Shown piece after piece: positions 5,418 through 59,587 of a stretch of 64,000 bases of DNA. The notes under the pieces were generated by a model that was not told the origin of the DNA, searched no databases, and was given only the letters and a program-made list of their open reading frames with translations. The position numbers and the translations under genes were made by a program. The stretch is taken from the IMG/VR virus record IMGVR_UViG_2786546882_000003, positions 1-64,000 of that record; one strand, written 5' to 3'. How positions within the stretch are numbered: position 1 is the stretch's first letter; every line of letters starts with the position of its first letter. Origin of the DNA: a virus. Lineage: Duplodnaviria; Caudoviricetes.

Positions 5418-5858
5418 GTGATGACGAAGCTCACGAGACAGCAGCTGCCGACACTTGTGGAAGTCTCCACTGTGATCCGAACCGTAAACGGCCGGACTGT
5501 TGAGCGACGCGCCCGTGAGCACCTCAACGTCAGAATTGTGCGAAGTGATCTATCACTCTACGAAGACGACCAAGTTGACATTGAGGAAATGTCCATCGAG
5601 GTCGGAAACGGGGTGGATCACGCGGGGAAGAAGCGATGGTTCATAAACGCTATTCGGCTCCGCGTTTGGGATAAGCATATTGGCTATCGGGCCAGTCGCG
5701 ACAACTCGGCACAGGGCATTCGAATCGATTTGAGCATTCAGCTGTCTGGCCGCGATCAAGAGGTCTTCGGCCAGCGGTTCAAACTGCACGACTCATTCGA
5801 AGAGGGCCATCGTGACGGCAAGCAGAAGTCAACGACGCTTTTCTTTGTGGGCATCTAA
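5418..5858 (+). CDS. hypothetical protein
   Basis: 146-aa ORF in gene run. Confidence 0.6.
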   Translation: MMTKLTRQQLPTLVEVSTVIRTVNGRTVERRAREHLNVRIVRSDLSLYEDDQVDIEEMSIEVGNGVDHAGKKRWFINAIRLRVWDKHIGYRASRDNSAQGIRIDLSIQLSGRDQEVFGQRFKLHDSFEEGHRDGKQKSTTLFFVGI

Positions 5859-5878
5859 CAATACAAACGGAGCGAGAA

Positions 5879-6439
5879 ATGATCGTCTGCCCTGAATGCC
5901 GTGGTGAACGGAAAATAAGAACCTTTGGGGTCGTCTGTATTCCTGGTTTTGGTGCAAGTGACCCGTCTGGCCATATTTGGTGCCCTTTATGCGATGCGAC
6001 TGGATCCATATCAGAATCGCGAATGCGGCTTTTTAAACTTGGCCAGAACATACGAGAATACCGAGAACGTACTCTCAGTCTTGGGTTGCGGGAAGCCGCA
6101 GAGAAATGGGGGACAACACCGTCGAAACTTACTGCAATTGAGAGTGGCCTTGCGGAAAGTGAATGGAGACCACCTGGGTTTCCGAAACATCTTGAAATTC
6201 AGCCGCCAGTAAAAGAGGGATGGGTTGTTAACGGCTGCGATGATCGCCGCCTTCTGCATGACGACGAGCAGTTTCGGAAGCGCGCTCTGGAAGCACTCTA
6301 TATTGCTATAGACCCAGGTGGAGGGCGAATGATGTCGCAACTGGAGCGTAACGAGATGTTTAGGCTCATAGGTCTTGTTGACGAACTGTCTTTCTCACTT
6401 GTTGGCGGGGTTCCGACAGCTCACGAGCGGTTTACATGA
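5879..6439 (+). CDS. DnaJ-type Zn-finger plus XRE-like HTH protein
   Basis: CPECRG...CPLCDATG then IREYRER...LREAAEKWG.TPSKLTAIESG. Confidence 0.75.
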   Translation: MIVCPECRGERKIRTFGVVCIPGFGASDPSGHIWCPLCDATGSISESRMRLFKLGQNIREYRERTLSLGLREAAEKWGTTPSKLTAIESGLAESEWRPPGFPKHLEIQPPVKEGWVVNGCDDRRLLHDDEQFRKRALEALYIAIDPGGGRMMSQLERNEMFRLIGLVDELSFSLVGGVPTAHERFT

Positions 6440-6684
6440 TGCCGCAAAAAATTAAGAGCGCCGTGCGATTCGCGTTCAAGTGCCTGCGCGGCATGACAAC
6501 GGCTGCGATATTCTGCATAGCAGCACCCATGTATGTAATGTGCAGTCCGATCTGGATTGTCGGAGCTGCGTACAACTGGGCCAATGACCAGCACGACCGA
6601 CCCTTCAAATCACACTTCTACTGGCTTGCGTTCAAATCTGAGCACGAGCGGGAACGTTGGTTAGAGTCTGGCAAAGAGTGGTAA
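6436..6684 (+). CDS. hypothetical membrane protein
   Basis: ATGA overlap, hydrophobic stretch. Confidence 0.6.
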   Translation: MMPQKIKSAVRFAFKCLRGMTTAAIFCIAAPMYVMCSPIWIVGAAYNWANDQHDRPFKSHFYWLAFKSEHERERWLESGKEW

Positions 6685-6712
6685 CTAGCTTCACATCCCA
6701 AACGGAATTGAT

Positions 6713-6922
6713 ATGACCTACATCGACAAACGCATGGCGATGATATTCAACGAGTGGGCCCGGCGGTACAGCGAGTCGCCGGAGAGTTTCACGGAGGTGC
6801 TCGACGCAGACGGCAAGCCAATTGAAGACTACGGCGAATGCTGCGTGGAGACATTCAAGTCCATCGCCGATGAAATGGACGCGAAAGGTCTTCTGCCGAC
6901 GGGCCCCGACAATGCACGGTAG
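6713..6922 (+). CDS. hypothetical protein
   Basis: 69-aa ORF. Confidence 0.6.
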   Translation: MTYIDKRMAMIFNEWARRYSESPESFTEVLDADGKPIEDYGECCVETFKSIADEMDAKGLLPTGPDNAR

Positions 6923-7112
6923 CCTTCGAAGCATTGTCGGCCGGGTTGAGCGACTGGTTGACATCGAGCTCGCCGCGCGAGAGTTGCTTGAGCAAATCGC
7001 CGTGTCTGATGCGGCCGAGGGCGTTGGCGATCGGACTCCAGAGGAAAATGCCGCGATTGCGAATCTTGAGAAAGCCGTCATCGGCGTCTCTACCAGAAAG
7101 GTCTCGCAGTGA
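6912..7112 (+). CDS. hypothetical protein
   Basis: ATG at 6912 overlaps upstream gene; GTGA overlap downstream. Confidence 0.5.
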   Translation: MHGSLRSIVGRVERLVDIELAARELLEQIAVSDAAEGVGDRTPEENAAIANLEKAVIGVSTRKVSQ

Positions 7113-7468
7113 ACGACCAAGCCAAAAAGTTTCTCTACGTGATTCCGGAAAAGAAACCGACCGGCTGGTTCATTCTTCCAGACGGCCGAAAGGTCAACAG
7201 ACACGGGTGGATCACACACGACACCAGAGTTCGTCTGACATACCACTACACCAGAGTCGTGCTGAAGACCCGCTGGGTAACGTACGGCCCGGAAGACATC
7301 GACTACCTCGTCTACGCCGGCCTCATCAAGGAAGAATTTGCCGCTCCGCGTGACCAAGGCTCGAATCTAACCCCCGCCATGAGCCTTAGGTTCATGTCAC
7401 TCGACCCAGGCCCCATCGGTTCCTGCTGGGGATACGCCAGCGTAAAGCCGCCGAGAGATGGCGACTAG
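7109..7468 (+). CDS. hypothetical protein
   Basis: 119-aa ORF. Confidence 0.6.
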   Translation: MNDQAKKFLYVIPEKKPTGWFILPDGRKVNRHGWITHDTRVRLTYHYTRVVLKTRWVTYGPEDIDYLVYAGLIKEEFAAPRDQGSNLTPAMSLRFMSLDPGPIGSCWGYASVKPPRDGD

Positions 7469-7497
7469 ACTATTTTTGCCATTTTCTTTTGTCGCCA

Positions 7498-7545
7498 TTG
7501 ACCGCCATTTGCCGATCAGTATAATACTTGACGTCGCAAGCAAGT
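7498..7545 (+). promoter_or_regulatory. sigma70-like promoter plus GTCGCAAG hairpin
   Basis: TTGACC-16nt-TATAAT (7498-7525), then ACTTG-acgtcgcaag-CAAGT. Confidence 0.8.
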
Positions 7546-7566
7546 CTACTGAGCCGTGAGGGCAAA

Positions 7567-7872
7567 ATGACCATTCAATACCAGCTGGCCAATGGCGCGA
7601 TCGTAAAGCCGGCCAAGGACTGCAACTGCGTGACCCATGAGGGCCCGCACTGGTTGCACATGGACCGACTGGACGCCGACAGCGAGCGGGCTGAGTACGA
7701 CTTGATCGAGGCCGAACTCGCTCGTGTCGAAGCCGACGGCGGATTCAAGTGCCTGCAGCACAAGTCCAACATCAACCATCGCATGGTACATCTCGCCAAG
7801 CGGGCGATGCGTCGACTCCAAGAGAAGAAACGAATCATGCAATCCCTGCAGATCGTTCGTATCATCACATAA
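7567..7872 (+). CDS. hypothetical protein (C.C..H.GPHW)
   Basis: GAGG RBS, follows promoter. Confidence 0.7.
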   Translation: MTIQYQLANGAIVKPAKDCNCVTHEGPHWLHMDRLDADSERAEYDLIEAELARVEADGGFKCLQHKSNINHRMVHLAKRAMRRLQEKKRIMQSLQIVRIIT

Positions 7873-7890
7873 CCACGAAGGGGCACGGTC

Positions 7891-8106
7891 GTGCAGTTCA
7901 GTGACATTTGGAATCGGTTGTGCCAGAAACAGGAACGTCTCAATGACGGAGACGCCGAGGTTACCTTCAAGTCCGAAAACCTGAAGAAACTTCTGCGTCA
8001 GGTCTATGACCAAGGCGAGAGTGCCGGCCGCAAAGCTGGCGAGGCGAAAGCCGCATCCAACTCACAGCAATACAGCGACTTCTTTTCGTCGATGTTTGGC
8101 CAGTAG
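7891..8106 (+). CDS. hypothetical protein
   Basis: 71-aa ORF. Confidence 0.65.
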   Translation: MQFSDIWNRLCQKQERLNDGDAEVTFKSENLKKLLRQVYDQGESAGRKAGEAKAASNSQQYSDFFSSMFGQ

Positions 8107-9618: not shown

Positions 9619-10083
9619 GTGGAAGTTAAATCGAGCAAGAAGAACGAGAATAAAATGCTGAGATTAGAACGACAACCGCGTTATACGATTCGAGAAGTCG
9701 CTGGCGGGCCGTCTGAAGTCCAACAAGACGCCTGGGACGCAATCTGCTCTTCCGTGGCGCGGGCAATGGACGCTTTGGACCTACGTGGGCATTTATTCGT
9801 CACGGTAATCGGCGCTGACATTATCCGCACTGGATACGGTGACGACGAGTGTGGTTTTGGCCTGTACCACAGCGGAATGCAGCACGTCGCTGTCTGCGGC
9901 GGAGATGGACCACCAGACTTAAAAGACGATCGAGCGGAGTGGATACGGCAGATCAAATTATCAACCACCCACGAGATCATTCACTACTACCAAGAGCTGC
10001 AATGCACGCTTGGTGATTCAGAAGAGACTGAGCTAGAGGCCGAACGAATGGCCGAAGAGATAGTTGCAGAGTCGACCTCGTGA
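9619..10083 (+). CDS. putative HExxH metallopeptidase-like protein
   Basis: FGLY...THEIIHYYQE...E.EAE. Confidence 0.65.
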   Translation: MEVKSSKKNENKMLRLERQPRYTIREVAGGPSEVQQDAWDAICSSVARAMDALDLRGHLFVTVIGADIIRTGYGDDECGFGLYHSGMQHVAVCGGDGPPDLKDDRAEWIRQIKLSTTHEIIHYYQELQCTLGDSEETELEAERMAEEIVAESTS

Positions 10084-10334
10084 ACGGCAAGAGCAACTGT
10101 CGGACATGCGGCCGACTGAAGGTTCCCGATCTCGACACGATCGAGAAGTTTTTGTCAGACGGGATCAAGCCGCCGCCATCTCGGGCAACTAAAGACGAGC
10201 TCGAGGAGTGGATTGACACGCATGTCCGCGTGATGAACAGCGTGCGCGATCTGCTCGTGCAGACGATTGCCGGCGAAGTTCACAGCAGGATCACGATGAA
10301 CCAAATCGATTTTGATTCGATCAAAGGTGATTGA
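10080..10334 (+). CDS. hypothetical protein
   Basis: GTGA overlap, CxxC. Confidence 0.6.
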   Translation: MNGKSNCRTCGRLKVPDLDTIEKFLSDGIKPPPSRATKDELEEWIDTHVRVMNSVRDLLVQTIAGEVHSRITMNQIDFDSIKGD

Positions 10335-18742: not shown

Positions 18743-18774
18743 AAAAAAGCAGACCACCCTATCGGGTAGTCCGC
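18743..18774 (-). terminator. intrinsic terminator
   Basis: GCGGACTACCC-gata-GGGTGGTCTGC-TTTTTT on minus strand after 18785..19087. Confidence 0.75.
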
Positions 18775-19095: not shown

Positions 19096-19137
19096 CTCCA
19101 GTGGAAGGAATCTTAGCGGGCCTTGCGACAGCCCCGC
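19096..19137 (-). promoter_or_regulatory. GTCGCAAG hairpin / TTCCTTCCACTGGAG leader (minus strand)
   Basis: Reverse complement GCGGGGCTGTCGCAAGGCCCGCTAAGATTCCTTCCACTGGAG. Confidence 0.85.
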
Positions 19138-20591: not shown

Positions 20592-20672
20592 TTGACGACA
20601 CGTTGCCGATACGTATAATACAGAAGTCACGCGGGCACGTCGCAAGGCCCGCCAAGATTCCTTCCACTGGAG
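20592..20672 (+). promoter_or_regulatory. promoter plus GTCGCAAG hairpin / TTCCTTCCACTGGAG leader
   Basis: TTGACG-16-TATAAT; GCGGGC-acgtcgcaag-GCCCGC; GATTCCTTCCACTGGAG. Confidence 0.9.
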
Positions 20673-21256: not shown

Positions 21257-21335
21257 CTCAAGATTGCCGTTGCGTATAATCGATAAGACACGGCGGGCAC
21301 GTCGCAAGGCCCGCCAAAACTTCCTTCCACTGGAG
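21253..21335 (+). promoter_or_regulatory. promoter plus GTCGCAAG hairpin leader
   Basis: TTGACT-16-TATAAT; GGCGGGC-acgtcgcaag-GCCCGCC; CTTCCTTCCACTGGAG. Confidence 0.9.
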
Positions 21336-23310: not shown

Positions 23311-23342
23311 ACCCCCGGGAATCAAACTCCCGGGGGTTTTTT
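23311..23342 (+). terminator. intrinsic terminator
   Basis: ACCCCCGGGA-atcaaac-TCCCGGGGGT plus T tract. Confidence 0.85.
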
Positions 23343-24777: not shown

Positions 24778-24840
24778 TTGACAACCTATTGCCGATGCGT
24801 ATAATGGCTGATGTCGCAAGCAGCCGTTTCCTTTTACCAC
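24778..24840 (+). promoter_or_regulatory. promoter plus GTCGCAAG hairpin leader
   Basis: TTGACA-16-TATAAT; GGCTG-atgtcgcaag-CAGCC; GTTTCCTTTTACCAC. Confidence 0.88.
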
Positions 24841-32127: not shown

Positions 32128-32189
32128 TTGACCGGCAAGTTTCCGTTGCGTATACTGACAGCGTCACAAGCATCAGTTTCCTTCCCCAC
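32128..32189 (+). promoter_or_regulatory. promoter plus variant leader (GTCACAAG)
   Basis: TTGACC-17-TATACT; ACTGA..gcgtcacaag..TCAGT-TTCCTTCCCCAC. Confidence 0.75.
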
Positions 32190-36629: not shown

Positions 36630-37076
36630 ATGGCCATTGGAATCATGCCGGAAGGCAACATCGCGTACTGCGCGGAACACAACCTGCAGACAACACAGAA
36701 GCTTTGGTGTTTTTGCGTCGAAGACGGAGAAGAGCCAAACCCAGAGTGCAGCGAATGTGGCGGTGCTGGCTACACACCGATCGTTAAGCGACCCTACGAG
36801 GTCTACATCAACGAGGACAATTTCAGACTGATTTGGAATGACCTCGGTGTTGAACTCGGCGACGGCATGTTCGGGTTGATCCATCCCGTGATGCTCCGGA
36901 GGCGACTGAACAACCCCGAGCTATCCGTAAGGCAACAAGCCGTAAATACGCAACCCGGGGATGCACCTACGATCTTCGGCGGTATTACCCTGAGTCAAGC
37001 CGTCGGGTATTATACGAGGCTTCGGGACATCTGCGACGAGGCAGAGAAACGCGAAGTACATGTTGTCTGGGGTTAG
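36630..37076 (+). CDS. Zn-finger hypothetical protein
   Basis: CFC...CSECGGAG. Confidence 0.7.
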   Translation: MAIGIMPEGNIAYCAEHNLQTTQKLWCFCVEDGEEPNPECSECGGAGYTPIVKRPYEVYINEDNFRLIWNDLGVELGDGMFGLIHPVMLRRRLNNPELSVRQQAVNTQPGDAPTIFGGITLSQAVGYYTRLRDICDEAEKREVHVVWG

Positions 37077-37081
37077 GCAAT

Positions 37082-37570
37082 ATGGACGATTCACAAACAG
37101 TTACGAGGGAACTTGTGGGTAAACAAGAATCGGCCGCTCAGGAGGTCAGAGCCAAGCCGTTTTCTGACATATTCAGAGAATCGCTCGAAGAGCAGTTCGC
37201 TTCTCTCTCCGAGGCCTCGGAGAAAACCGGCGTGTCTCTTTCCGTACTTACCCGCTACAAGAATGGGACTCGGTCGTTGCGGCTTGATACGGTCGAGAAA
37301 GTTTGGCCACACCTTGGCATTCGGCTCGAACCACCGTCATTCGCAGAGACGGTGCGTACGCAAGGTCTACAGAAAGCGGTGATCGAAATGGTGCAGTCTC
37401 TTGCACTCCCGGACTTGGAGCTAGCGCGTCGATGCGGCCTTAATCAACCGACCTTATGGCGATTCCTGCATGGCAAGAACGTCATTAAGCTCGAGGCAAT
37501 GAGCAAGTTGTGGGCGGTGCTTCCGATCCGCGCGTATCGCGGCAAACGTCGCATCGATCTTATTCAATAG
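37082..37570 (+). CDS. tandem XRE-family HTH regulator
   Basis: SEKTGVSLSVLTRYKNG.RSLRLDT and LARRCGLNQPTLWRFLHG. Confidence 0.85.
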   Translation: MDDSQTVTRELVGKQESAAQEVRAKPFSDIFRESLEEQFASLSEASEKTGVSLSVLTRYKNGTRSLRLDTVEKVWPHLGIRLEPPSFAETVRTQGLQKAVIEMVQSLALPDLELARRCGLNQPTLWRFLHGKNVIKLEAMSKLWAVLPIRAYRGKRRIDLIQ

Positions 37571-37661
37571 CGTCATTTGCCGCCATTTGTGCATTTTTGC
37601 TATGCTGGGCATCAGGGGTATTTCTACCTTGATGCCCTTTTTGTTTAGGAGAAACGCACAA

Positions 37662-37865
37662 ATGGCAAATACGTTGCGGAACGTTCAGTTTCCGAATCCA
37701 TCAGGAAGCACGCAGGGGCAGATGCAGGTGTTCGGTGTCGCCACCGGTGCATCACAGCGCGCTAACCGGACTTCCAGCACTCAGCGTGAGTCTGCCTACC
37801 GCGCCCGGAAGGCAAATGCCCGGACTGCGGCTGCAGCGTCTGGCACCATCGACGTCACGCGGTAA
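37662..37865 (+). CDS. small basic protein
   Basis: AGGAG RBS; R/A-rich 67 aa. Confidence 0.65.
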   Translation: MANTLRNVQFPNPSGSTQGQMQVFGVATGASQRANRTSSTQRESAYRARKANARTAAAASGTIDVTR

Positions 37866-39420: not shown

Positions 39421-40218
39421 TTGGAAACGCAACTTCTAGACAAGATGGGGAACGAGATAAAGGTTCCCCCGCGATTCAGCGGAGACGCCAAGAGGTTTGC
39501 CGCTCTTGTCTCTTCGCTGGAGCCACATCACTGCGCTTTCCCTACCGGATATCCGCTTCACCCCGACTCTGGCGAGCCGTGCCGATGCAAGAAGACGTCG
39601 GAAGGTGTCTGCAGGCTTCATAGCGAGAACCTTTTACCGCGCGTCATTAACGACGCACCGAGCGGACGGATTCGTGATGGCCTGATCTCCGCGTTCAAGG
39701 ACTCGCGGCTGACAGATACTCGTCCGAACATCGCGATCGAAGAGTTTCTGCTCAGCGAGCGGATGAAAATGATCGAGAACGGCGAGTCGCGCCGTTTCAT
39801 CGAATATGTCGAATCAGCCACATCTCGGCTTCGAGATTTGTTTGATGCCATGAAGGCGGCAATCAGCGCGGGTGATCAAGAAGAGTTTGCGAATCTGATG
39901 AAGAAGCTCGATCGAGCGATCACCAGCATCAACAAAGTCGTCGACAACCGACACAAGCATCACTCAGCACTTCGGGAGTTGAGCGATGCCAACGGGTCAT
40001 CGATCCGGATGAAAGAGACGGCCAGTCGCATCGCGATTAACGAGCGGCAGGTAATCTCATTCGACACCGCCGTGATCACGATGCGGGAAATGGTCGATCT
40101 GTTTCACTTGGCCGTAAACTCCGTCGTGACCAGCAAACAGGAGCGAAACGAGGTCTATCAGAAACTGTCACACAGCATGTATTCGATCGCCGGTCGCCTA
40201 AAGCCGGAGACTCAATAG
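39421..40218 (+). CDS. probable terminase small subunit
   Basis: Directly upstream of TerL; C...C...CRLH followed by helical region. Confidence 0.55.
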   Translation: METQLLDKMGNEIKVPPRFSGDAKRFAALVSSLEPHHCAFPTGYPLHPDSGEPCRCKKTSEGVCRLHSENLLPRVINDAPSGRIRDGLISAFKDSRLTDTRPNIAIEEFLLSERMKMIENGESRRFIEYVESATSRLRDLFDAMKAAISAGDQEEFANLMKKLDRAITSINKVVDNRHKHHSALRELSDANGSSIRMKETASRIAINERQVISFDTAVITMREMVDLFHLAVNSVVTSKQERNEVYQKLSHSMYSIAGRLKPETQ

Positions 40219-42254
40219 TGTTTCAGAATTTGATTGACGAGGCTCGTCAGGAAACGTCGCAGAACTTCCTGACCAAGAGCCTCGACAGTTTCTACAACAT
40301 CGGCGAAGACGCGCGAGTCGAGCACGCTAGAAAACTGGCCGCAACGGGAAACCCATTTCCGTTGATTGCTCTGCAGTGGCCCGACGACTTGGTCATCAAA
40401 GACAAAAAGCTCGAGCAGTATTTCGAAGGAGAGGTCGGCAACCCAGACAATCCTTGCCTGCGGATCGACCCGTGGCAGCGGTTGGTGATTCGCGCGGCAT
40501 TTGACGTTACTGTCGGTGAGATTGCGATGAAGGGCTGTACGGGGGCCGGAAAAGGCTTCACGTCGGCGATCGTCGCTAATCTCCTGTTTGACGTCTTCAA
40601 TCCATGCCGGATCAATGTGACGTCCGAGACGTTCCGTCACGCCAGTGAGAACCTGTTCGGTGAAATCTCGGTGTGGCGCGACAAGATGTCCAACCCTGGG
40701 CCCGGCAATCTGGTCAGCTGCCAGCTCGGCGACACAAAACGTCACTACATCACCGTCCTAAACCCGAGTCCGCACGGGAAAGGGGAGGCGTTTTCGGGTA
40801 TGCACTCGGAAATGACCGTCTATTTCTTTGACGAGGCATCTGGCGTACCTGAGATCCACTACACGAACGCGTTGAAGAACGCGCGGAAGATCTTCGCGTT
40901 GTCAAACCCGCGTATTACCGAGGGTTGGTTCCGAGACTTGTACCGACCCTTGCGTGGGGAAGGCACAAAGGAGGAGAAGAACGATCGTGAAAACGCGACG
41001 AACTATTGTACTGGTCGGATCGGCCGCCGACTTTGCGTGACCATTCCCGGCGACGCGTGTGCCAATGTTCGATTCGGCCGGATCAAGAACCCGGTAGCTC
41101 CCCGCCGTGGAGTCGTGATCGAAGGGAAAGAGTACGGACCGGCAGAGCGGATCCCAGACGAAGACTTCGAGAAAGTCAAAGCCCTCGTGCCTCGGCAGAT
41201 CGACTTGGAGCAATACCAGTCGATCATCGACACGTCAAAAGAGCCTTGGGAAGTCGAATGCTACGCGCACGCAAGGTTCCCGACGGAAGACCCAGTGCGT
41301 CAGGTCATTCTCGGGTCCAATCTGGAGCGACACGTCGAAGAATACCGAAGACGGGCTGGACGCATTGCCGTAACATGCTTTGGCCTTGACGTGGCCCGGT
41401 CAAAGAGCGGTGACGAAACGATTCTGATGGCAGGCAGTGTTGATGGCGTGGCAAGAAAGCATGCCTGGAAAGATGACGACAACATGCGTCATGTCAAGAA
41501 GATCTTGCGACTTTGTGAATCGGAGTACGGCATCGATCTTCGTGACGGAACCAACCCGATTTGCATCGACTACGCGGGGGGATACGGTGCGGGCGTAGGC
41601 GACCGGCTACAGGAACTTGGCTGTTGGGTGATCAAGTTCCAGCCGGCTGGTCGAGCGGTTGTCGAGACCGGCGGCATTTACGTCAACGCCCGCGCTGAGT
41701 GGTACATGTTGCTAGGCCGTCGTTTTGACCCAAATGACATCTGGCAAGAAAAACCCTGGCCTTTTCCGCCGGACGATGAACTGATCGAAGAGTTGACCAG
41801 TCCCGTCAAATTTCCGGCTCGAGGCGGAACCGCCTGGCAGATCGAGCCAAAGGATGACATCAAGAAACGCCTCGGTCGGTCTCCCGACTCGGCTGACGCT
41901 ATGGTCTGTTTGTACCGAGCCGTGTTCGAGCTCTATGAGCTTGAGAACGTCATGCGACAACACAATGAGTATGAAGTCATTGCGGAGGCAGCCACTTCCG
42001 ATCCAATCGTGTTGGGGCAACATCTTGATAACCCTCGCATCCGCAGAGCAAACGATCCTGTGAAGACGCCGGAAGAGCAAGAGTATGAACGTGTCGACCC
42101 ACCGGTCCGGATGACAGAGGGGATTGAGTCACGTCCGATTGAAGAGATCATCGACGATTTCGCTGACTTTGTCAGCGGATACGAAAGGGGATCGAATCAG
42201 CGGGTAAAGCCTCCGACGTTGGACTTCTTTGATAACGATGGGGACGACTGGTGA
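40218..42254 (+). CDS. terL: terminase large subunit
   Basis: Walker A KGCTGAGKG, Walker B FFDEASG, LSNP, RNase H GLDVAR, SPDSADA. Confidence 0.93.
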   Translation: MFQNLIDEARQETSQNFLTKSLDSFYNIGEDARVEHARKLAATGNPFPLIALQWPDDLVIKDKKLEQYFEGEVGNPDNPCLRIDPWQRLVIRAAFDVTVGEIAMKGCTGAGKGFTSAIVANLLFDVFNPCRINVTSETFRHASENLFGEISVWRDKMSNPGPGNLVSCQLGDTKRHYITVLNPSPHGKGEAFSGMHSEMTVYFFDEASGVPEIHYTNALKNARKIFALSNPRITEGWFRDLYRPLRGEGTKEEKNDRENATNYCTGRIGRRLCVTIPGDACANVRFGRIKNPVAPRRGVVIEGKEYGPAERIPDEDFEKVKALVPRQIDLEQYQSIIDTSKEPWEVECYAHARFPTEDPVRQVILGSNLERHVEEYRRRAGRIAVTCFGLDVARSKSGDETILMAGSVDGVARKHAWKDDDNMRHVKKILRLCESEYGIDLRDGTNPICIDYAGGYGAGVGDRLQELGCWVIKFQPAGRAVVETGGIYVNARAEWYMLLGRRFDPNDIWQEKPWPFPPDDELIEELTSPVKFPARGGTAWQIEPKDDIKKRLGRSPDSADAMVCLYRAVFELYELENVMRQHNEYEVIAEAATSDPIVLGQHLDNPRIRRANDPVKTPEEQEYERVDPPVRMTEGIESRPIEEIIDDFADFVSGYERGSNQRVKPPTLDFFDNDGDDW

Positions 42255-42685: not shown

Positions 42686-44137
42686 ATGTCGAGTATCACC
42701 CAACACTCTTTGTCGCGCGCTCGCCAACTAAGCGATGGGTATCTAGAAACCATCCATCGTAAACGTGCTGATCGCTCGGGGTCTTCTGGCGGTGCTTACG
42801 AGCAAGTCAGCGGGATCGGTCTGTTTGGCCAGCGGTCGAATTTCTCCAATTCGCGGCAGTTCTATGACGCCTTTCGCGACACAGCGTTTACCGCGATCAG
42901 ACCGGTCGCTACCCGCTTCGCCCAGCAGCCACTCCGTGTTGCCGTAACGCCACGCCGCTCGCAACGGACGAGTTTCAGCTCGATGGTGAAGTCGCTTCGC
43001 GGCGAAGGTTTCATCGGCAGCGGATTCGAGGGCCGGCAGAAGAGCTACCGGCGCGCCATGCCGGAGGCCATCAAGCAAATGCTGCCGCCTGACAGCATCG
43101 TTCTGGATGAGCACATCGTGACGGAGGCCTTCCGGCGCCCGAACATCTGGCACAGCGACTACAGCACTTTGTACAGCGTCGCCGCATCGATGCTGTGTTG
43201 TGGTTCGGCTTTGATTACCTGGGACGAGGAAAACCTCTCGGCCGGCGAGAGCGGAGAAGAGTCCCCCTCCGTGTATTACATTCCAATGCACTGGGTGGAG
43301 CCCAAGGAGAACGTTCTCCAAGGCTGGACGATTACTCCGCCGCACACAGGCGAATCGTTTGATGTCGAGCCTGGCGAATACGTTTACTTCCAGATGCCTG
43401 ACCCCGGGGATCCATTCAACACCGTTTCGCCGATGCGAGCAGCTGCCCGCGCAATTAACACAGCGGACAAGATCCACGACGCCAACTACAACGGCCTCCA
43501 GAACCTAATCAATCCGAGCTACGCGATCGTCGCCGGCAAGATCGAGCAGCCTACCGGTGGCCAGGCCAGGCGGCCGGAACTTCGCGGCGAACAGCGCCGG
43601 AAGCTGACCGAGTTGATTAAACGGTATGCCGCCGGTGTCTTGCGGAACGGTGATCCGATCATCCTCGATGGAATCATCGAAGACGTCAAACCACTCGGTA
43701 CGGTGCAGCGCGACGTCGACTATTCCGGCGGCAATGCGATGACCGAGCGGAAGATCATGCAGGCCTTCGGTGTCAGCCCCGTGGTCGCCGGCTACGCAGA
43801 GAACGCGAACCGGGCGGGATCAAATGTTGCGCACGAAGTGTTCTACGACGTCGTTCTAAACCCACTGCTATTGCAAGCAGGCCGATCTCTCACGCATACG
43901 CTTGGTCCGAAATACTCTACGGATCAGTATCGTGTGACCGTCTACATGGAGTCAGCACAGGTTAACGACCCTGACTCAAAGCTTCGTCGCGTGGCGTTGT
44001 TCAAAGACCGATTGAGTGACCAGGAGGCTCGCCGCTTCATGCGGACAGGTGAGCTCGACATCGAGGATGAGGATAAGACATTTGAGCAAGAAAGGCAGCA
44101 ACGCCAGCGCGAACAGAACAATCCAGTGGGAAGGTAA
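42686..44137 (+). CDS. portal protein (HK97 family)
   Basis: Position; F.RPN, SPMRAA, IMQAFGVSP..G, LNPLL. Confidence 0.9.
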   Translation: MSSITQHSLSRARQLSDGYLETIHRKRADRSGSSGGAYEQVSGIGLFGQRSNFSNSRQFYDAFRDTAFTAIRPVATRFAQQPLRVAVTPRRSQRTSFSSMVKSLRGEGFIGSGFEGRQKSYRRAMPEAIKQMLPPDSIVLDEHIVTEAFRRPNIWHSDYSTLYSVAASMLCCGSALITWDEENLSAGESGEESPSVYYIPMHWVEPKENVLQGWTITPPHTGESFDVEPGEYVYFQMPDPGDPFNTVSPMRAAARAINTADKIHDANYNGLQNLINPSYAIVAGKIEQPTGGQARRPELRGEQRRKLTELIKRYAAGVLRNGDPIILDGIIEDVKPLGTVQRDVDYSGGNAMTERKIMQAFGVSPVVAGYAENANRAGSNVAHEVFYDVVLNPLLLQAGRSLTHTLGPKYSTDQYRVTVYMESAQVNDPDSKLRRVALFKDRLSDQEARRFMRTGELDIEDEDKTFEQERQQRQREQNNPVGR

Positions 44138-44369
44138 TCCCGGCGATCAGTTCTATGAATCCGGTGTGTTTGTCGGCACGCCTGAAGGCGACCTGAACGA
44201 GAGGCGGCAATTGGCTCAGGCCTTACATGGTTTGTATGCCGCGATCACAGAAAACCTTGGCAAAACCGGCAAATACGCGGAGATCGGATTTGCCGTCCAG
44301 ATCGTTGACGGCAAGCTCAAGATCTGCGAGGCGTCAACAAAAAGGACATTCAAGCCAGCAAAAGAATAG
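44082..44369 (+). CDS. hypothetical protein
   Basis: ORF between portal and protease; start uncertain. Confidence 0.5.
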   Translation: MSKKGSNASANRTIQWEGNPGDQFYESGVFVGTPEGDLNERRQLAQALHGLYAAITENLGKTGKYAEIGFAVQIVDGKLKICEASTKRTFKPAKE

Positions 44370-44487
44370 CGCTTTTTGACTTAAGCGTATGACTTTTGCA
44401 AATATCAGATTTGATGCGAATCGCATTTGATCCGAGGTTAGCACAAGCAACCCGGTAGCTGCACCAAGCGGCTGCCGGGTTTTTTCG
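44367..44487 (+). promoter_or_regulatory. late leader A: putative promoter, GCACAAG hairpin and overlapping terminator
   Basis: TAGCGCTTTTTGAC...TGCAAATAT...CGAGGTTAGCACAAGCAACCCG(terminator)CGGGTTTTTT. Confidence 0.85.
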
Positions 44488-44499
44488 TTGGGACATGCT

Positions 44500-46005
44500 A
44501 TGGCACTCATTGACTTGATTAAACACGCACGCAGTGGCAATGGACTCATTGCTACCGCTGCCCCGTATCTCAAGGAAATGCAAGCCTGTTTGAAAGGCGA
44601 AGGTGCCTGCCCAGCGAAACTGTTCGGTCTCGATAGCGCTGATGCCTGGAAGAAGGCTCTGGAAGAGGCCGACGAGAAGCTCACATACTGCGATCCAAAC
44701 GGCGGGATCAAGAGCGTCAAGTCAGAGAAGGCCGAGCTGAGTGAAGGTTCGATCCTCGACTACGACGCGATCCTGTCGACAAGTCAAAAAGACCGAGACG
44801 GTGACATTCTTCGCACAGAGGGCATGCAGCTTGAGCCTGGCATGCCGCTGCTTTGGCAGCACATGTGGAACCAGCCGATCGGCAAGATGCTCAGCATCGT
44901 GGAGCAGAACGACCGCCATGTCGTTTGCAAATACGCCGTTGCTGATACGGAAATGGGACGCGATGCCGCGAAGCTAATCCGCATGGGCGCCCTTCGAAAA
45001 AGTCATGGGTTCATGCCAATCCCCGGCTATTTCGAAATGATCGACGTCGAAAAGTCGGCTGATGGATCAATGACGCCTGCCGGCTATGACATCAAACGCT
45101 GCTCGGTGTACGAGTCCAGTGTCGTGAGCATTCCGGCCAACGCCGGCACACGCATCTTGCGGACCTACGAGAAAGAAGCTTCCGCAATCTTCACGGCGGT
45201 TGAGCAAAAGCAGCTTGAGAGTGAAGTGTTCAGCCGATGGGCCAAGGGCCTGTACGACAACCGTCAGCGGTTCTTCCCTGGAGCCGATTTTGGGCGACTC
45301 GAAAAGATGATGACCGAGATGAAAAAGACGGTCGAGGATATGGTGACTGCCAAGACTCCTGGGCAGAAGGACATGCAGTCCGACAGCCGTCCGAAGTGCA
45401 GCGAGTGTGAAGACGGCTATTGCGATGAAAGCGGCACGTGCGACCACTGCGGTCATGTCATGCCGAAGTCTGGAAAGTCGGCAGGTCAACCCGCGTTCAT
45501 CAAGTCATTTGACGAATCGGTTGCGATGACCAAGTCCTACGGGATGCCAGATTCGCTGCCTGGTTCATTCGAATCCGTTCAACGCGCCCTCAGTCGAAAG
45601 GCTGAAGACTACCTCGAGGATAACGGGGTCGATGTCGGCGACTACGAGTACGTAACCCTGATCGCCACTTTCAGCGACAGTGCGATCGTCTGCAAGCGGA
45701 ACTACCGCAAAGACTCTGAGTACTGTTACCGCCTCATGTGGGAAATGACCGAAGGCAAGCCGGCATTTACCGGCCAGCCCGAGAAGGTCGAGATCGAAGC
45801 CACCGTGGTCAGCAAGGCACTCGACGCCAGCGGCGCCCGCATCAAAGAGATGGGTGCTGACGCCTACGCCAAGAAGCTTGTCAGTTCGGCTTTCGCCGAC
45901 GGCGAGCTGAGCGATGAGACCAAGAAATCAATCAACACGCTCGCGGCGCTGATCAACCAGCCAGAAGAGCAAACCAACCCATTGACCGCTTTGTTTGGCG
46001 GTTAA
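44500..46005 (+). CDS. HK97-type prohead protease with long C-terminal extension
   Basis: DRDGDI, LLWQH..QPIGK, S.GF.P, ESSVVSIPAN. Confidence 0.9.
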   Translation: MALIDLIKHARSGNGLIATAAPYLKEMQACLKGEGACPAKLFGLDSADAWKKALEEADEKLTYCDPNGGIKSVKSEKAELSEGSILDYDAILSTSQKDRDGDILRTEGMQLEPGMPLLWQHMWNQPIGKMLSIVEQNDRHVVCKYAVADTEMGRDAAKLIRMGALRKSHGFMPIPGYFEMIDVEKSADGSMTPAGYDIKRCSVYESSVVSIPANAGTRILRTYEKEASAIFTAVEQKQLESEVFSRWAKGLYDNRQRFFPGADFGRLEKMMTEMKKTVEDMVTAKTPGQKDMQSDSRPKCSECEDGYCDESGTCDHCGHVMPKSGKSAGQPAFIKSFDESVAMTKSYGMPDSLPGSFESVQRALSRKAEDYLEDNGVDVGDYEYVTLIATFSDSAIVCKRNYRKDSEYCYRLMWEMTEGKPAFTGQPEKVEIEATVVSKALDASGARIKEMGADAYAKKLVSSAFADGELSDETKKSINTLAALINQPEEQTNPLTALFGG

Positions 46006-46057: not shown

Positions 46058-47695
46058 GTGATCAAAGTGACGAAGGCGCTTGCTGCGCACGCGGCCGAAC
46101 ATCTCGGCCTCGATTCTGATCTTGCCAAGGACTACAAGGCAAACGAAGACGCAATCCGCAAGTGCGTTTCGGAAGCCTTGACCGAAGGTAAGTTGGAAAT
46201 CGGACAACTGCAAAAGTTGATGGAAACGCCTGCCGAAGACGAGGCCAGCACGAAGGCCAAGCAGATGATCGGCGAGGCTGTCGGTGAAGCAATGGCTCCG
46301 TTTGCGAAGGGCCTGAGCGATTTGACCGATACCCTCAGCAAAGCGTTTGGCTCCGGCCAAGCGGCCACGGGTGAGACCAAGGAAACCAAGGGCGAAGGCG
46401 CTGGCGCCAAGGCCTATGGTGCGGCCGGTTCGAACCAAGGCGGAGAATCGACCCCTCCCCGCGTGAAGTGTGTCTCCGAACTGTACGACCGCACGACCAA
46501 GTCGGCGACTCGTCCCAACGGTATGCCGTACGCGATCAAGGGCGACGACGACGGAACTCCCGGTCGTGACCTGATGCACCCCAGTCAGTTTGACAAGGCT
46601 GTGTCGGGTGCGTGGTTGAAGTTCATGATCAACCGCCAGGCCAAAGTGGACAACCACAGCGTGCCGAACGGTCTGAAAATGACCGATCACGACTGGGCGT
46701 TGGTCAAGTATGCGGCCAACGAGATGCCGTTCCTCGGCCCTGTCGGCATGAAGAGCGAAGACGACGACGCCAGCTCCGGTTGGGCCAAGGGAACGCGGCT
46801 CAACGACATGCAGGTCAAGACGTTGCTTGACGACGCGACCTCCGGCGGTTTGGAAGCAGTTCCAATCGTGTTCGACGACATCGCCATTCTGACCCCGTTG
46901 CTCAACGGCGAGTTGTTCCCCTACGTCGATGTCCGCACCACGACCCGTCGTCGTGTGGAAGGCTTCGCGATGGGCAACCCTTCGGTCTACTGGACGGCTG
47001 AAGGGTCCACCCCGACCGTGTTCAGCACCGACGACTTCATCTCGGCCTTCGACACCAACGTCCACCCCTGTACGGGAACGATGGAAGTCGGCCTGGACTT
47101 CGAGGCGGATTCGCCCGTCGGCATCGCCGATCTGTTGATCAGCCGCTACGGCCAGCAAATGGCTACCGAGTTGGACAACGTCATCGCGACTGGCTCCGGC
47201 ACCGGCCGACCGCTTGGTATTTTCAACACGGTTGGGTTGACCTCGCTCAGCACCGCGAACGGAACCGGTGGTCCCTGGACGATCGGCGACATCGACAAGC
47301 TGTATTACGGCGTCGATGCGGCCTTCCGCCAGGAAGCCGGCAACCGATTGGTCTTCGTCGGCAACGACGTGACCTACCAGCGTCTGCGTTCGATCCAAGT
47401 CGGAACCTCCGACCAGCGCCGGGTGCTCGGAATGAGCTACCTCGGAACCGGTCGTCCGATGATCAACGACGTCATGTATGCCCGCAACACGGGGATCGGA
47501 AACGGTTCGTTGGCAGCCTGCTGCTTGAACCGCTACGTCATCTACCGCCGGGCAGGTTTCTCGGTTCGCCGCGAAACCGGTGGTACGACCTTGGCGGCCA
47601 AGAACTTGAGCCAGTACATCTTCCGCATGCGGGTAGGTGGCCAGCTCAACCACAGTTCGGCCGCAGTCATCTACGACGGTGACGGCCAAACCTAA
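46058..47695 (+). CDS. major capsid protein (HK97 fold)
   Basis: SGGLEAVP..F, W.AEG, G.GTG.PLGI; strong codon bias; terminator after gene. Confidence 0.92.
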   Translation: MIKVTKALAAHAAEHLGLDSDLAKDYKANEDAIRKCVSEALTEGKLEIGQLQKLMETPAEDEASTKAKQMIGEAVGEAMAPFAKGLSDLTDTLSKAFGSGQAATGETKETKGEGAGAKAYGAAGSNQGGESTPPRVKCVSELYDRTTKSATRPNGMPYAIKGDDDGTPGRDLMHPSQFDKAVSGAWLKFMINRQAKVDNHSVPNGLKMTDHDWALVKYAANEMPFLGPVGMKSEDDDASSGWAKGTRLNDMQVKTLLDDATSGGLEAVPIVFDDIAILTPLLNGELFPYVDVRTTTRRRVEGFAMGNPSVYWTAEGSTPTVFSTDDFISAFDTNVHPCTGTMEVGLDFEADSPVGIADLLISRYGQQMATELDNVIATGSGTGRPLGIFNTVGLTSLSTANGTGGPWTIGDIDKLYYGVDAAFRQEAGNRLVFVGNDVTYQRLRSIQVGTSDQRRVLGMSYLGTGRPMINDVMYARNTGIGNGSLAACCLNRYVIYRRAGFSVRRETGGTTLAAKNLSQYIFRMRVGGQLNHSSAAVIYDGDGQT

Positions 47696-47730: not shown

Positions 47731-47769
47731 ACAGCCCCCGGGGTTTGCTCCACCCTGGGGGCTGTTTTT
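47731..47769 (+). terminator. intrinsic terminator after MCP
   Basis: ACAGCCCCCGGGG...CCCTGGGGGCTGT-TTTT. Confidence 0.88.
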
Positions 47770-48468: not shown

Positions 48469-49086
48469 ATGGCAAACCAAAACAGCACCGGCAGCAGCAA
48501 CTCCAACAACCAACAAAGCAATCGGCCAGCATCCGTGACAAAGCAACGGTATGCGATTGAGGTTGCCCACAAGCGGAACAACGGCTTGATGTTCGGGCCG
48601 CTCAGCCAACGACTTCGCGGACGCTGGGAGGCGAACAAGATTGTTCGGTTTCCGATCAGTGAAAACTCAGGCCTGGCCGGATTGATGGATGCTGCTCCGG
48701 AAATCCCTGGGATGTACATCTGGATTGACTTGGAAAAACGGTCGGCCGGTGCAAAAGACCCGCTGGAATGCACTGAGTCCGGCAAACGGATCATGGCCAA
48801 GATTCAGTCACACTACAAGCAGGTCGAGAGCGCCGTAGTCAGTCCGGCCGAACCGATCGAAATCACCGGCATGACCGACGATCAGATCAAAGACTTCCTT
48901 TACTGGATGCGGCGATCGGTTGATGACGGCCATGCGGTGGCAGTGGCAAACAGCCCTGAGCTTCCTCCGATGGAGAAGATCAAGCAAATGCCAGGTCGGC
49001 GGACGCTCAACCACGCGTTTCCGACGACGAACCCCGAAACACGCCAGTTCGAAGAGCCTTACGAGTTCTTCGTTCCGGCGAAATAG
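48469..49086 (+). CDS. hypothetical protein
   Basis: GAGG RBS, 205 aa. Confidence 0.75.
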   Translation: MANQNSTGSSNSNNQQSNRPASVTKQRYAIEVAHKRNNGLMFGPLSQRLRGRWEANKIVRFPISENSGLAGLMDAAPEIPGMYIWIDLEKRSAGAKDPLECTESGKRIMAKIQSHYKQVESAVVSPAEPIEITGMTDDQIKDFLYWMRRSVDDGHAVAVANSPELPPMEKIKQMPGRRTLNHAFPTTNPETRQFEEPYEFFVPAK

Positions 49087-57392: not shown

Positions 57393-57510
57393 TAGCGCTT
57401 TTTGACCTATCTGGTTTATCTGCGAATATGACGTTTGATCCATAGAGATATTCGAGGTTAGCACAAGCAACCCGAAATTCTGCCAGTGCGCAGGGTTTCG
57501 GGTTTTTTCG
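57393..57510 (+). promoter_or_regulatory. late leader B: putative promoter, GCACAAG hairpin and overlapping terminator
   Basis: TAGCGCTTTTTGAC...TGCGAATAT...CGAGGTTAGCACAAGCAACCCG(terminator)CGGGTTTTTT. Confidence 0.85.
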
Positions 57511-57527
57511 TGCCTTGAGGGGTTCAG

Positions 57528-57728
57528 ATGAACAAAGCAAAGGTTTGGAAATTCGTAAAGGGTGCGTTGATCGCATCCGCTGGCGCCGCCCTGGCTTATT
57601 TGGGCGGACAAGTAATTCCAGCGTTGGAAGTAGCTGGTACGTCGGCCACGATCGTCGCGATCGCTTCGGCATTGGTGAACCTTGGAAAGGTGATCCTGCA
57701 GAAGATCGACGACGGGGCCGCACAGTAA
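57528..57728 (+). CDS. holin-like two-TM protein
   Basis: KGALIASAGAALAYL...IVAIASALVNL. Confidence 0.6.
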   Translation: MNKAKVWKFVKGALIASAGAALAYLGGQVIPALEVAGTSATIVAIASALVNLGKVILQKIDDGAAQ

Positions 57729-58018
57729 TGCTCTGGATAATTCGTCGATTCAACGCCCGCAGGAAACTGCGGGCTTTGCCGCCTGAGCAGCGCGAAGTCG
57801 CTTTGGCGATGGCGGCCGATTGCTGCCACAACGCGGCGACAGCCGAAGACTGCGAACTGCTCGCCAAGAACAAACTTGAGAGCGATCCGCCTGTCGGTTT
57901 CGGCGTCGTCGAGATTCTCGCAGTGATCCAAGTACTCATTGCGATCTGGAAGTTCATCGACTCGATGGGCTGGCTTGATCGTGCAAACCGACCAATGCTC
58001 GAGAAGGAATTGCTGTGA
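57728..58018 (+). CDS. membrane protein
   Basis: TAATG coupling; C-terminal TM. Confidence 0.65.
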   Translation: MLWIIRRFNARRKLRALPPEQREVALAMAADCCHNAATAEDCELLAKNKLESDPPVGFGVVEILAVIQVLIAIWKFIDSMGWLDRANRPMLEKELL

Positions 58019-58278: not shown

Positions 58279-58709
58279 ACTTAAACAAAACCGTTGGGCT
58301 GGTTTTGGCATTGAGCTTAGCGTTCCTCGCCGGGCAGTTCTTCAGCGGCAGTGGCGGCTTCTCGATTCCGGACTTTGGCGGTGTCATTCCGATCGTCGAA
58401 CCGAAGGTCAACGGCGAAGGCTGGTTGGTCATGGTCGACGAGCTAAGTGATCCGCTGACGGTGACTGTCGATGCCGCCAGGAACATGGAGTGGCAAGAGA
58501 AGCTGACCAGCAAAGAGATCAAGTTCGCACGCTACGACGATGACGACGCCGTGGCGGAGAGCTACGTCAAAGCGCTCAGCGAAAAAGTACCAGGCGTGTT
58601 GCTTATGGAAGACGAAGCCGACGGCAGGAAGGTCGTGGCGACAAAGGCTTTGACCAAAGACGACACGCTCAGTTCGATCACCGCATTTGTGGACGCCCAT
58701 ACCAAATGA
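58275..58709 (+). CDS. secreted/membrane protein, possibly thioredoxin-like fold
   Basis: Signal/TM; RYDDD...VPGVLL. Confidence 0.65.
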   Translation: MNLNKTVGLVLALSLAFLAGQFFSGSGGFSIPDFGGVIPIVEPKVNGEGWLVMVDELSDPLTVTVDAARNMEWQEKLTSKEIKFARYDDDDAVAESYVKALSEKVPGVLLMEDEADGRKVVATKALTKDDTLSSITAFVDAHTK

Positions 58710-59587
58710 CGAAAGTCGGCGAAATCGTAAAGACGGCTCCTGGCCAGCTTGATGAAATCATCGGGCCAGAGGGTAACCGGATCAAACTCGGGCTGCGGAA
58801 GCCGCCAAAAGAGTTGCCGGTCACATACGCGCCGTTGGTCGGGGCTTTGCCTCGCCTGTTGACCTACGATGAGATTAAGGCAAGGTGCGAAAGCGTCGAC
58901 CGCCGCCCCTCCCGTGATCGATGGGGCCCAGACACGATCAAGGACCAAGATGGCCGAGGAGCCTGCCAAGGGTATGCGTCTGCCGGCATGGCCGAGCGTG
59001 TCCGAGAATCTAGCGGTCAGAAGCGAGTCGTCTTGTCTGGCGACTTCTCTTACTCGCTTGCCAATGGCGGCCGAGACCAGGGGTCTGCTTTGTCGCGCGG
59101 CTTCATGGCGGCTACCCAGGTCGGCTATGCCCCTGAAGACACGCCCGGCCTGAAGCGATGGGAATACCGCAAATCGCACATGCCGCAGGCTGCGTTCGCG
59201 GCTGCTAGCCGGTTCAAGGGTATCGACGGATTCTACTGCGAAACGCAGCAGGAATTCTTCACGGCTCTTGCCCTCGGCATGATCGGCGTGATCGCCGTAC
59301 ACGTTGCCGGCGCTTTTTCGCAACTCGACAACTACGGGATCAGTCAAGGCGGCAACGGCGATGGTAACCACGCCGTGTGTGCGGACGACTTGGTCTACGA
59401 CCGTCGGCTCGGCGGATTCAAGATCGACTCACCAAACAGTTGGAAGCGGACTTGGGGGGATAACGGACGTTGTTACTACACGTTCGAACGTCACCTTCGC
59501 CGCACTATCGAAGTTCACAAGTTCTACGTCTTCCCGATTCTTACGCAGGATCCACAAGGCGATAACCCACCTCAGGTGCTCGTATGA
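58706..59587 (+). CDS. papain-like (C1) cysteine peptidase
   Basis: KDQDGRGAC, NHAV, NSW..TWG.NG. Confidence 0.88.
   Translation: MTKVGEIVKTAPGQLDEIIGPEGNRIKLGLRKPPKELPVTYAPLVGALPRLLTYDEIKARCESVDRRPSRDRWGPDTIKDQDGRGACQGYASAGMAERVRESSGQKRVVLSGDFSYSLANGGRDQGSALSRGFMAATQVGYAPEDTPGLKRWEYRKSHMPQAAFAAASRFKGIDGFYCETQQEFFTALALGMIGVIAVHVAGAFSQLDNYGISQGGNGDGNHAVCADDLVYDRRLGGFKIDSPNSWKRTWGDNGRCYYTFERHLRRTIEVHKFYVFPILTQDPQGDNPPQVLV

Follow-up and report, generated by a model that had tools for sequence, protein, structure and literature searches.

In phages that are transcribed by the host RNA polymerase, textbook late control is exerted by activators, by sigma factors or by processive antiterminators, and, to our knowledge, a site-specific late-gene switch resembling the ribonucleic antiterminator (RAT) elements read by BglG, SacY and LicT represents a class that has not been described for phages. 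Published precedents for the arrangement are systems in which capsid clusters located downstream of a sigma70 promoter and leader terminator are gated by Q21-like or unrelated antiterminators, such as BrrG of BaGTA (bioRxiv 10.1101/2024.11.20.624540) and GafZ of CcGTA (PMC11150451). The locus analysed here, designated leader A, is a 130-nt intergenic region located between a small gene (gene X) and the prohead protease gene in a 64,000-nt stretch of viral DNA (the window; all coordinates refer to it, and to its plus strand unless stated otherwise). In leader A, and again in a second copy (leader B) in front of a probable lysis block, promoter-like elements are followed by a small hairpin and a strong intrinsic terminator, which have seven nucleotides in common. 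Leader A is interpreted here, with moderate confidence, as a transcription attenuator of the late operon, leader B being its second copy, with read-through obtained when a factor holds the small hairpin closed.

The terminator of leader A (44449-44485) was found to consist of a 14-bp stem (44449-44481, 9 G-C pairs) formed by the arms AACCCGGTAGCTGC and GCGGCTGCCGGGTT, an ACCAA loop and a run of six T residues (44480-44485). Its predicted stability of -26.7 kcal/mol (z -6.84) was equalled by none of 200 dinucleotide shuffles, and it displays the hallmarks of intrinsic terminators, i.e. a G+C-rich stem-loop, a directly adjoining U tract and an orientation codirectional with the gene. The ATG of the protease gene is located at position 44500, 14 nt past the T run, in agreement with an earlier interpretation made from the letters of the window (the sequence-only reading), which had placed a strong terminator just before the protease start.

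Overlapping this terminator, a 24-nt segment (the 24-mer, CCGAGGTTAGCACAAGCAACCCGG; 44432-44455) folds as (((.((((.((....))))))))), a putative antiterminator hairpin of 9 bp with an ACAA loop and bulged A residues at 44435 and 44440, with a stability of -9.2 kcal/mol (z -4.07) that was not reached by any of 200 shuffles. The sequence-only reading had recognized its inner part, GGTT-A-GC-ACAA-GC-AACC (44436-44452), and had pointed out that the AACC arm also represents the base of the terminator. This inner part does fold by itself (-4.0 kcal/mol), while the stem extends beyond GGTT/AACC to CCGAGG...CCCGG, so that the true hairpin is larger than had been proposed. The overlap amounts to 7 nt (AACCCGG), with the 3' end of the 24-mer forming the base of the 5' arm of the terminator, and the two helices are mutually exclusive; the competition proposed earlier is borne out by this exclusivity, by the shared nucleotides and by compensatory changes in both structures (see below). 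A further, 5'-proximal hairpin (44413-44427; GAUGCG-AAU-CGCAUU) was seen in folds of leader A, and its sequence is not conserved among the leaders. Two other readings of this leader were rejected: a leader peptide, as the 14-codon open reading frame (ORF) at 44414-44458 ends in the terminator arm, leader B has none and the related copies described below read the block in another frame; and a resemblance to the ops signal of RfaH, the motif CGGTAGC being present in leader A only and regarded as a coincidence.

The 3.56-Mb assembly contains exactly two copies of a 22-mer from within the hairpin, CGAGGTTAGCACAAGCAACCCG, located at 44433 and at 57453, in both cases on the plus strand, in intergenic DNA and in the late region. 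The second occurrence marks leader B, which carries its own hairpin (57452-57475; TCGAGG...CCCGA; -7.8 kcal/mol, z -4.53), closed by a U-A pair where leader A has C-G, and its own terminator (57469-57508; -22.6 kcal/mol, z -5.24), a 15-bp stem with an interior unlike that of leader A and followed by six T residues. Relatives of the protease were gathered from metagenomes and IMG/VR, and the closest contig compared was G001 (locus L180), a 30.7-kb IMG/VR contig that is syntenic with positions 37-57 kb of the window and exhibits 58-65% DNA identity in four large genes; protease relatives at 50-62% identity also exist (P0002-P0006). Upstream of its protease gene, G001 carries a 24-mer identical to that of leader A (copy A); across the 24 kb of synteny, only one exact match is longer, and no other long match falls in non-coding DNA. 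A second G001 copy (copy B; block GGTTAGTACCTACAACC, loop ACCU) precedes a gene for an 84-aa protein with a hydrophobic segment, bringing the number of cassette copies to four. As a separate difference between the two phages, G001 harbours ~2.8 kb (5180-7993) that have no counterpart in the window, located between its large terminase gene and the first shared gene that follows.

When IMG/VR and genome contigs were scanned with exact and degenerate patterns of the block, the G001 contig alone was recovered, the four genome-contig and 12 other IMG/VR matches being attributed to chance, as they had no terminator context. Likewise, a covariance model of the four leaders identified no further copy in 94 loci or 150 related genomes, where its weak matches (L121, L114 and L013) shared the terminator base alone, and single-protein locus scans yielded nothing further. 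Judged from these searches, the element is real, strongly constrained and lineage-specific. Among the loci with weak matches, L121, which belongs to a distant relative, shows the same layout ~1.4 kb upstream of its protease gene (1900-2110), consisting of TTGACA-N17-TAGAAC, a 60-nt leader, a terminator with the base AACCCGG...CCGGGTTTTTTCGT and a gene start.

Comparison of the four leaders from the two phages revealed six variable columns in the 24-mer, four of which make up two compensatory pairs and two of which are located in the loop (ACAA versus ACCU). Leader B has U-A as its closing pair, where the other three copies have C-G, and G001 copy B has U-A next to the loop, a position at which the remaining copies again have C-G. 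None of the changes breaks a pair, with 100% of cells paired as compared with 19-47% when the 3' partners were slid, and the invariant block begins and ends where the hairpin does. In the terminators, the lower stem shows three compensatory pairs among the four leaders and the upper stems are unalignable, yet paired in every leader; overall, 95.8% of cells are paired, four pairs changed on both sides and the combined score was reached by one of 500 shuffles. The base in column 25 (A in leader B, otherwise G) has two alternative partners, column 2 in the hairpin and column 48 in the terminator, and in leader B all three columns changed together, as expected for two helices that exclude each other. 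Given the small number of sequences, the structures of both hairpin and terminator are well supported by the alignment.

The position of the conserved block with respect to its flanking elements is also informative. Leader A contains a -35-like TTGACT (44376-44381), of which TTGAC is invariant in all four leaders, and, after an 18-nt spacer, a predicted extended -10-like TGC-AAATAT (44397-44405); the corresponding elements of leader B (57402-57429) are TTGACC (57402-57407) and TGC-GAATAT (57421-57429), with a 16-nt spacer. The extended -10 versions of the four leaders are TGCAAATAT, TGCGAATAT, CGCAATCAT and TGCAACCAT, and in all four TTGAC(T/C/A) is separated from AAnyAT by a T-rich spacer of 16-18 nt with (T/C)GC at its end. 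These putative leader promoters, which were proposed from the sequence, appear to have a good -35, combined with a -10 that is extended but weak. For the promoter postulated in the sequence-only reading the outcome was mixed, in that the elements of leader A score below the threshold of a consensus scan, whereas the same layout is present 5' of all four leaders. No conserved element was found between the -35 and -10, the spacers not being conserved among the four leaders, and a -10-like TTTGAT located 4 nt after the -10 is present in leaders A and B only, and not in G001. In the four leaders, the 24-mer lies at a variable 26, 22, 19 and 29 nt from the -10-like hexamer, whereas 48-51 nt lie between it and the T tract, with an exact 7-nt overlap in every case. 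Fixed spacing to the terminator combined with variable spacing to the promoter indicates that the block is tied to the terminator and not to the promoter, which argues for a role at the terminator rather than in the initiation complex.

When the nascent RNA was folded up to the end of the 24-mer, the small hairpin was formed in three of the four leaders, while its three basal pairs are lost to a hairpin further upstream in copy A of G001. In the full leader, folding of both conformers showed that the terminator is favoured, as forcing the 24-mer hairpin costs 10.1 to 10.5 kcal/mol. Since the terminator fold is ~10 kcal/mol more stable and stepwise invasion by its 3' arm is possible, termination is predicted to be the default state and read-through to need help, presumably in the form of a factor. 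A stem that is set apart from its U tract should not, according to the established requirements of intrinsic termination, cause termination; with the 24-mer hairpin held, an upper stem of 7-8 bp located 7 nt from the U tract would remain, which should not terminate.

In the switch that we infer from these elements, including its transcription start, its default state, its timing and the existence and nature of the factor, host RNA polymerase would start at a sigma70-type extended -10 promoter (TTGACT-N15-TGC-AAATAT) and would, ~20 nt further on, transcribe the 24-nt hairpin, followed by the strong terminator, the 5' arm of which opens with the 7 nt that end this hairpin. If no factor is present, the terminator would win by strand displacement, so that transcripts would stop 14 nt before the protease start codon, ~75 nt past the predicted transcription start. 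Late in infection, a trans-acting factor, most likely a phage-encoded RNA-binding protein that reads the invariant stem and the two A residues bulging from it, would keep the 24-nt hairpin closed; the upper stem would be parted from the U tract, termination would fail and the protease-capsid operon would be transcribed. The same event at leader B would open the probable lysis block. Although the regulatory role of the leaders is deduced entirely from their sequence, the late genes are probably activated by whatever holds the small hairpin in its closed form. By analogy with PyrR and TRAP, the opposite polarity may also be considered, in which a factor bound to the 5' half promotes termination. 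If true, an RNA switch of the terminator/antiterminator type that acts in cis and is present once before the head genes and once before the lysis genes would represent a further strategy of late control, and the cassette (~110 bp) is compact enough for direct testing and for reuse as a genetic part. Such a promoter-hairpin-terminator cassette was not found described in the literature searched, the searches not having been aimed at that question.

The window represents the first 64 kb of C155, a 100,062-bp contig that is the largest in a 3.56-Mb marine metagenome bin and that is, judged from its gene content, a tailed-phage genome; searches using blastn and tblastn revealed no cultured-phage relative at the level of DNA or capsid protein. 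Because its early genes carry near-consensus sigma70 promoters and neither a phage RNA polymerase nor a sigma factor was detected in the phage, it is presumably transcribed throughout by the host polymerase. Upstream of leader A, the large terminase gene (40218-42254), a gene for a 122-aa protein, the portal gene (42686-44137) and gene X (44082-44369; 95 aa from TTG 44082, stop codon TAG at 44367) are encoded on the plus strand. The first gene behind leader A specifies the prohead protease/scaffold (44500-46005; Pfam Peptidase_S78, E 2.4e-10; PHROG head maturation protease) and is followed by the major capsid protein gene (46058-47695; Pfam Phage_capsid, E 1.5e-19) and by a strong terminator (47731-47765) which G001 has at the same place. 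Head-completion and tail genes follow this terminator with no promoter-like site between. For the middle part of the protease/scaffold protein, the consensus of 18 relatives displays a zinc-ribbon-like KCxxCxxGxxDxxGxCxxCG motif, located after the protease domain and before the C-terminal part.

At both leaders, the first gene and its Shine-Dalgarno sequence lie directly behind the T tract, and since only ~14-20 nt separate the T tract from the gene start, the first genes would depend on read-through. Behind leader B, this first gene (57528-57728; Shine-Dalgarno sequence and ATG at 57528) encodes a 66-aa protein with two hydrophobic helices and is followed by two more small genes with hydrophobic N-termini and by a peptidase-like gene (58706-59587). 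None of the genes behind leader B matched a holin family; the 66-aa protein may be called holin-like by its composition only, and a lysis block is a plausible reading of this gene group. The 66-aa gene lies under a 167-aa ORF in another frame (57515-58018) and was consequently hidden in a longest-ORF list. In a marine metatranscriptome run from 2016, two contigs (44638-44913 and 48571-48775) match the phage without a difference, neither of them covering a leader; the phage, or a near-identical one, was present in that sample as indicated by these exact matches, and the library may hold DNA. A second RNA run (X2) contained no contigs matching the phage.

Among described regulatory systems, the RAT elements of BglG, SacY and LicT resemble leader A in that a short, imperfect leader hairpin overlaps the 5' arm of a terminator, that the terminator would be the default and that a bound protein would stabilize the hairpin. 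In contrast to these elements, the phage hairpin comprises 24 nt with two single-A bulges and appears to deviate from the RAT consensus, and the phage device, which has no sugar phosphotransferase context, would gate virion and lysis genes. The CAT RNA-binding domain (CAT_RBD, PF03123) yielded no match in the whole assembly, phage included, at E <= 0.1, while control genomes were matched. Of the RAT-like logic suggested in the sequence-only reading, a factor-stabilized antiterminator overlapping a terminator therefore stands as a reasonable mechanism, with the terminator as equilibrium state and exclusive helices, whereas membership of the BglG/SacY family does not. Rfam provided no family match at the gathering threshold or at E <= 5, apart from terminator-only noise.

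The PyrR, TRAP and ANTAR (EutV, NasR and AmiR) attenuators similarly employ exclusive antiterminator and terminator helices that share one strand, with the decision being taken during transcription. The ANTAR signal consists of dual hexaloop hairpins, in contrast to the single tetraloop hairpin found here, and no ANTAR domain is encoded on the phage, the sole match being located on bin contig C25; the triplet repeats recognized by TRAP are absent from the phage leader. As regards systems based on NusG paralogues (RfaH and LoaP), the phage is without a NusG-like match, the only one being located on bin contig C98. With the lambdoid PR'-tR' region controlled by Q (and likewise Q21, AlpA, GafZ and BrrG), leader A shares a putative host-type promoter, a strong terminator within ~80 nt and a location at the head of the late genes, in addition to further terminators inside the late region. 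It differs in that no Q-family protein was detected on the phage contig (Pfam Phage_antitermQ and Antiterm, PF06530 and PF03589), that no conserved DNA element was detected between -35 and -10 and that the terminator faces competition from a cis-acting RNA hairpin, a feature neither required by nor present in Q systems. By analogy, the device would thus work like a protein-read attenuator, of RAT type or other, placed as a lambdoid PR'-tR', and would be a member of neither family because the defining proteins were sought and not found.

No antiterminator was identified among 60 proteins scanned against PHROG and Pfam, and candidates for the trans-acting factor are nominated by position only. 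Gene X is one such candidate: it lies in the +1 frame with respect to the portal gene, the 3' end of which it overlaps (by 56 nt in the window and by 38 nt in G001, where it is located at 9854-10111) and is kept at the same place in G001 with 35% identity. Among ~180 fetched loci, homologues were found only in the two phages with the 24-mer, and a profile search places gene X in a small family of ~75-106-aa proteins. It had no match in Pfam, PHROG or PDB profiles, and Foldseek returned none at E <= 0.001; its AlphaFold2 model, with a core predicted local distance difference test (pLDDT) score of 79-90, shows a helix and a beta-hairpin with no PDB fold match. A likeness to DUF2292 was not supported. 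Two further positional candidates constitute the last early-type operon before the late region, namely a Cys-rich orphan protein of 148 aa (36630-37076), without a homologue in a search of 5.8 billion proteins, and a tandem Cro/C1-type helix-turn-helix protein (37082-37570) that is conserved in G001. For the orphan P0046, the AlphaFold2 model reached a pLDDT of 31.6 and the ESM Atlas returned only unnamed viral clusters. That a small phage RNA-binding protein of an undescribed family, for which gene X and the Cys-rich orphan are candidates, clamps the bulged-A hairpin and thereby opens the head and lysis operons is put forward as a tentative suggestion.

Several observations weigh against leader A being a factor-held attenuator. 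The alignment comprises four sequences from two phages, each compensatory change being a single event, and for the antiterminator alone 35 of 500 shuffles match the observed covariation, while the GGUU/AACC core is invariant and contributes no covariation support. The double pairing constraint could by itself explain the extreme conservation, with no sequence-reading protein implied. Furthermore, the -10 hexamers are weak (3/6 matches), an RNA-binding antiterminator family was not found on the phage and no factor was identified. Finally, many distant relatives have a promoter-terminator leader before the protease gene with no detectable competing hairpin, which fits a processive mechanism better.

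Such a mechanism, which we regard as unlikely, would involve lambdoid-type antitermination (Q, Q21, AlpA, GafZ/BrrG-like or N/put-like), in which a modified polymerase ignores this and later terminators and the 24-mer is a loading signal or is merely tolerated. Published precedents exist (bioRxiv 10.1101/2024.11.20.624540; PMC11150451), and the order of promoter, terminator and late genes corresponds to PR'-tR'. Of 38 distinct relatives, 19 were shown to have a terminator (a strong hairpin with a T run) at most 70 nt from the protease start, against a background of 4%, and a consensus promoter (TTGACA-N16-18-TAnnnT) upstream of that terminator was identified in six of these 19 by script and in two more by eye, with no competing hairpin. 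Among the leaders compared, pairing of the terminator base with upstream sequence was significant only in leaders A and B of the window, where the free-energy difference (ddG) of upstream pairing (-5.2 and -6.0, respectively) was reached by 1.7% and 0.7% of shuffles. Judged from this comparison, promoter-terminator gating of head genes is old and widespread in the lineage, and the competing hairpin is a local solution. A processive mechanism would also suit the 9.6 kb of essential genes that follow the capsid terminator with no promoter-like site in both phages, although capsid-gene terminators are often simply leaky. Conversely, Phage_antitermQ, Antiterm and a NusG paralogue were not found on the phage contig, no conserved element was detected between -35 and -10, and the TTTGAT after the -10 is missing in G001. 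Processive antitermination moreover leaves the fixed register of the block with the terminator, the 7-nt sharing and the covariation unexplained.

A factor-free role is distinctly improbable in our estimation; here the cassette would be an insulator or attenuator which ends the terminase-portal transcript and lets a fixed fraction of polymerases read through, the hairpin tuning that fraction. The location of the terminator directly 3' of the portal gene and gene X suits this explanation, as does the finding that terminators are common at this junction in relatives whether or not a promoter is present, and the hairpin could set the leakiness kinetically. However, a strong unconditional terminator ahead of the most-needed virion genes would be costly, the cassette also precedes a probable lysis block, where timing matters, and it is strictly conserved across diverged phages.

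Small regulatory RNAs such as 6S and StxS are produced by early termination at lambdoid PR'-tR' (PMC7547250), and the terminated leader (~70 nt) could similarly be a product in its own right, with the conserved block as seed. Its layout of a 5' hairpin, a conserved segment, a Rho-independent terminator and a U tail would be appropriate for such an RNA, and the terminator part alone weakly resembles the RybB model (E ~1). This explanation is nevertheless very unlikely, as the block is a base-paired hairpin with compensatory changes and not a single-stranded seed, as a trans-RNA partner was sought and rejected (no complement of at least 10 nt in the phage contig and none within five mismatches in the assembly), and as the need for read-through would remain. 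That the block acts as DNA, i.e. as a late promoter or activator site with transcripts starting inside the 5' arm of the terminator, is scarcely credible: 22-24 invariant bases are typical of phage-specific promoters and the tandem helix-turn-helix regulator gene (37082-37570), conserved in G001, lies just before the late region, but no phage RNA polymerase or sigma factor was found, the block is without a -10-like hexamer, a conserved sigma70-like promoter lies upstream of it, at a distance that varies, and a double-stranded protein site does not require hairpin-compensatory substitutions.

The early region of the same phage (7527-36600) contains a leader family of its own (e.g. 20632-20651, 21293-21314, 24806-24825 and 32155-32176, and 19116-19137 on the minus strand). 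These early leaders were shown to consist of a sigma70 promoter (TTGAC-N7-TTGCCGWTRCG-TATAAT), a co-varying stem with an invariant GUCGCAA loop and a CU-rich box, the hairpin being followed by TTCCTTCCACTGGAG with the start codon; the motif GTCRCAAG occurs 17 times versus 5.8 expected. The sequence-only reading had likened GCACAAG in leader A to the early GTC(G/A)CAAG and had raised the possibility that one factor serves both early and late leaders. A covariance model of nine early hairpins, which recovers 9/9 at 22-30 bits, gave no match at 44432-44455 or 57452-57475 with filters off at E <= 10; the late loop varies (ACAA versus ACCU) and only CACAAG is in common, so that neither the resemblance nor the shared factor was upheld. 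The two leader types are alike in having a small hairpin soon after a sigma70-type promoter and in CACAA(G), which is shared with the early variant at 32163, and differ in that the early hairpin is followed by a CU-rich box whereas the late one is followed by a terminator. The shared CACAA(G) would be a lead at most.

Some other motifs were observed in the window. The start of the packaging module (37575-37665) combines a promoter-like stretch that includes CCGCCATTTG, a directly adjoining 31-nt hairpin (37607-37637) with TTTTTGTTT and a Shine-Dalgarno sequence, ahead of a 67-aa gene (37662-37865), and this cassette has no counterpart in G001. The motif CCGCCATTKG occurs five times versus 0.29 expected (7502, 25810 and 37580 on the plus strand, 25273 and 59061 on the minus strand); all three plus-strand copies are located in promoter regions, and the motif may be the operator of a promoter subclass. 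A CGT directly after the T run was observed in 5 of 15 strong terminators on C155 (e.g. 23312-23336, 18749-18774 on the minus strand, 44451-44479 and 57471-57502) and is absent from the twelve commonest tails (17-25 occurrences each) of 554 terminators on the other contigs of the bin. A TTTTCGT(T/G) tail recurs before the protease gene in distant relatives (L100, L102, L110, L114, L008, L010 and L013).

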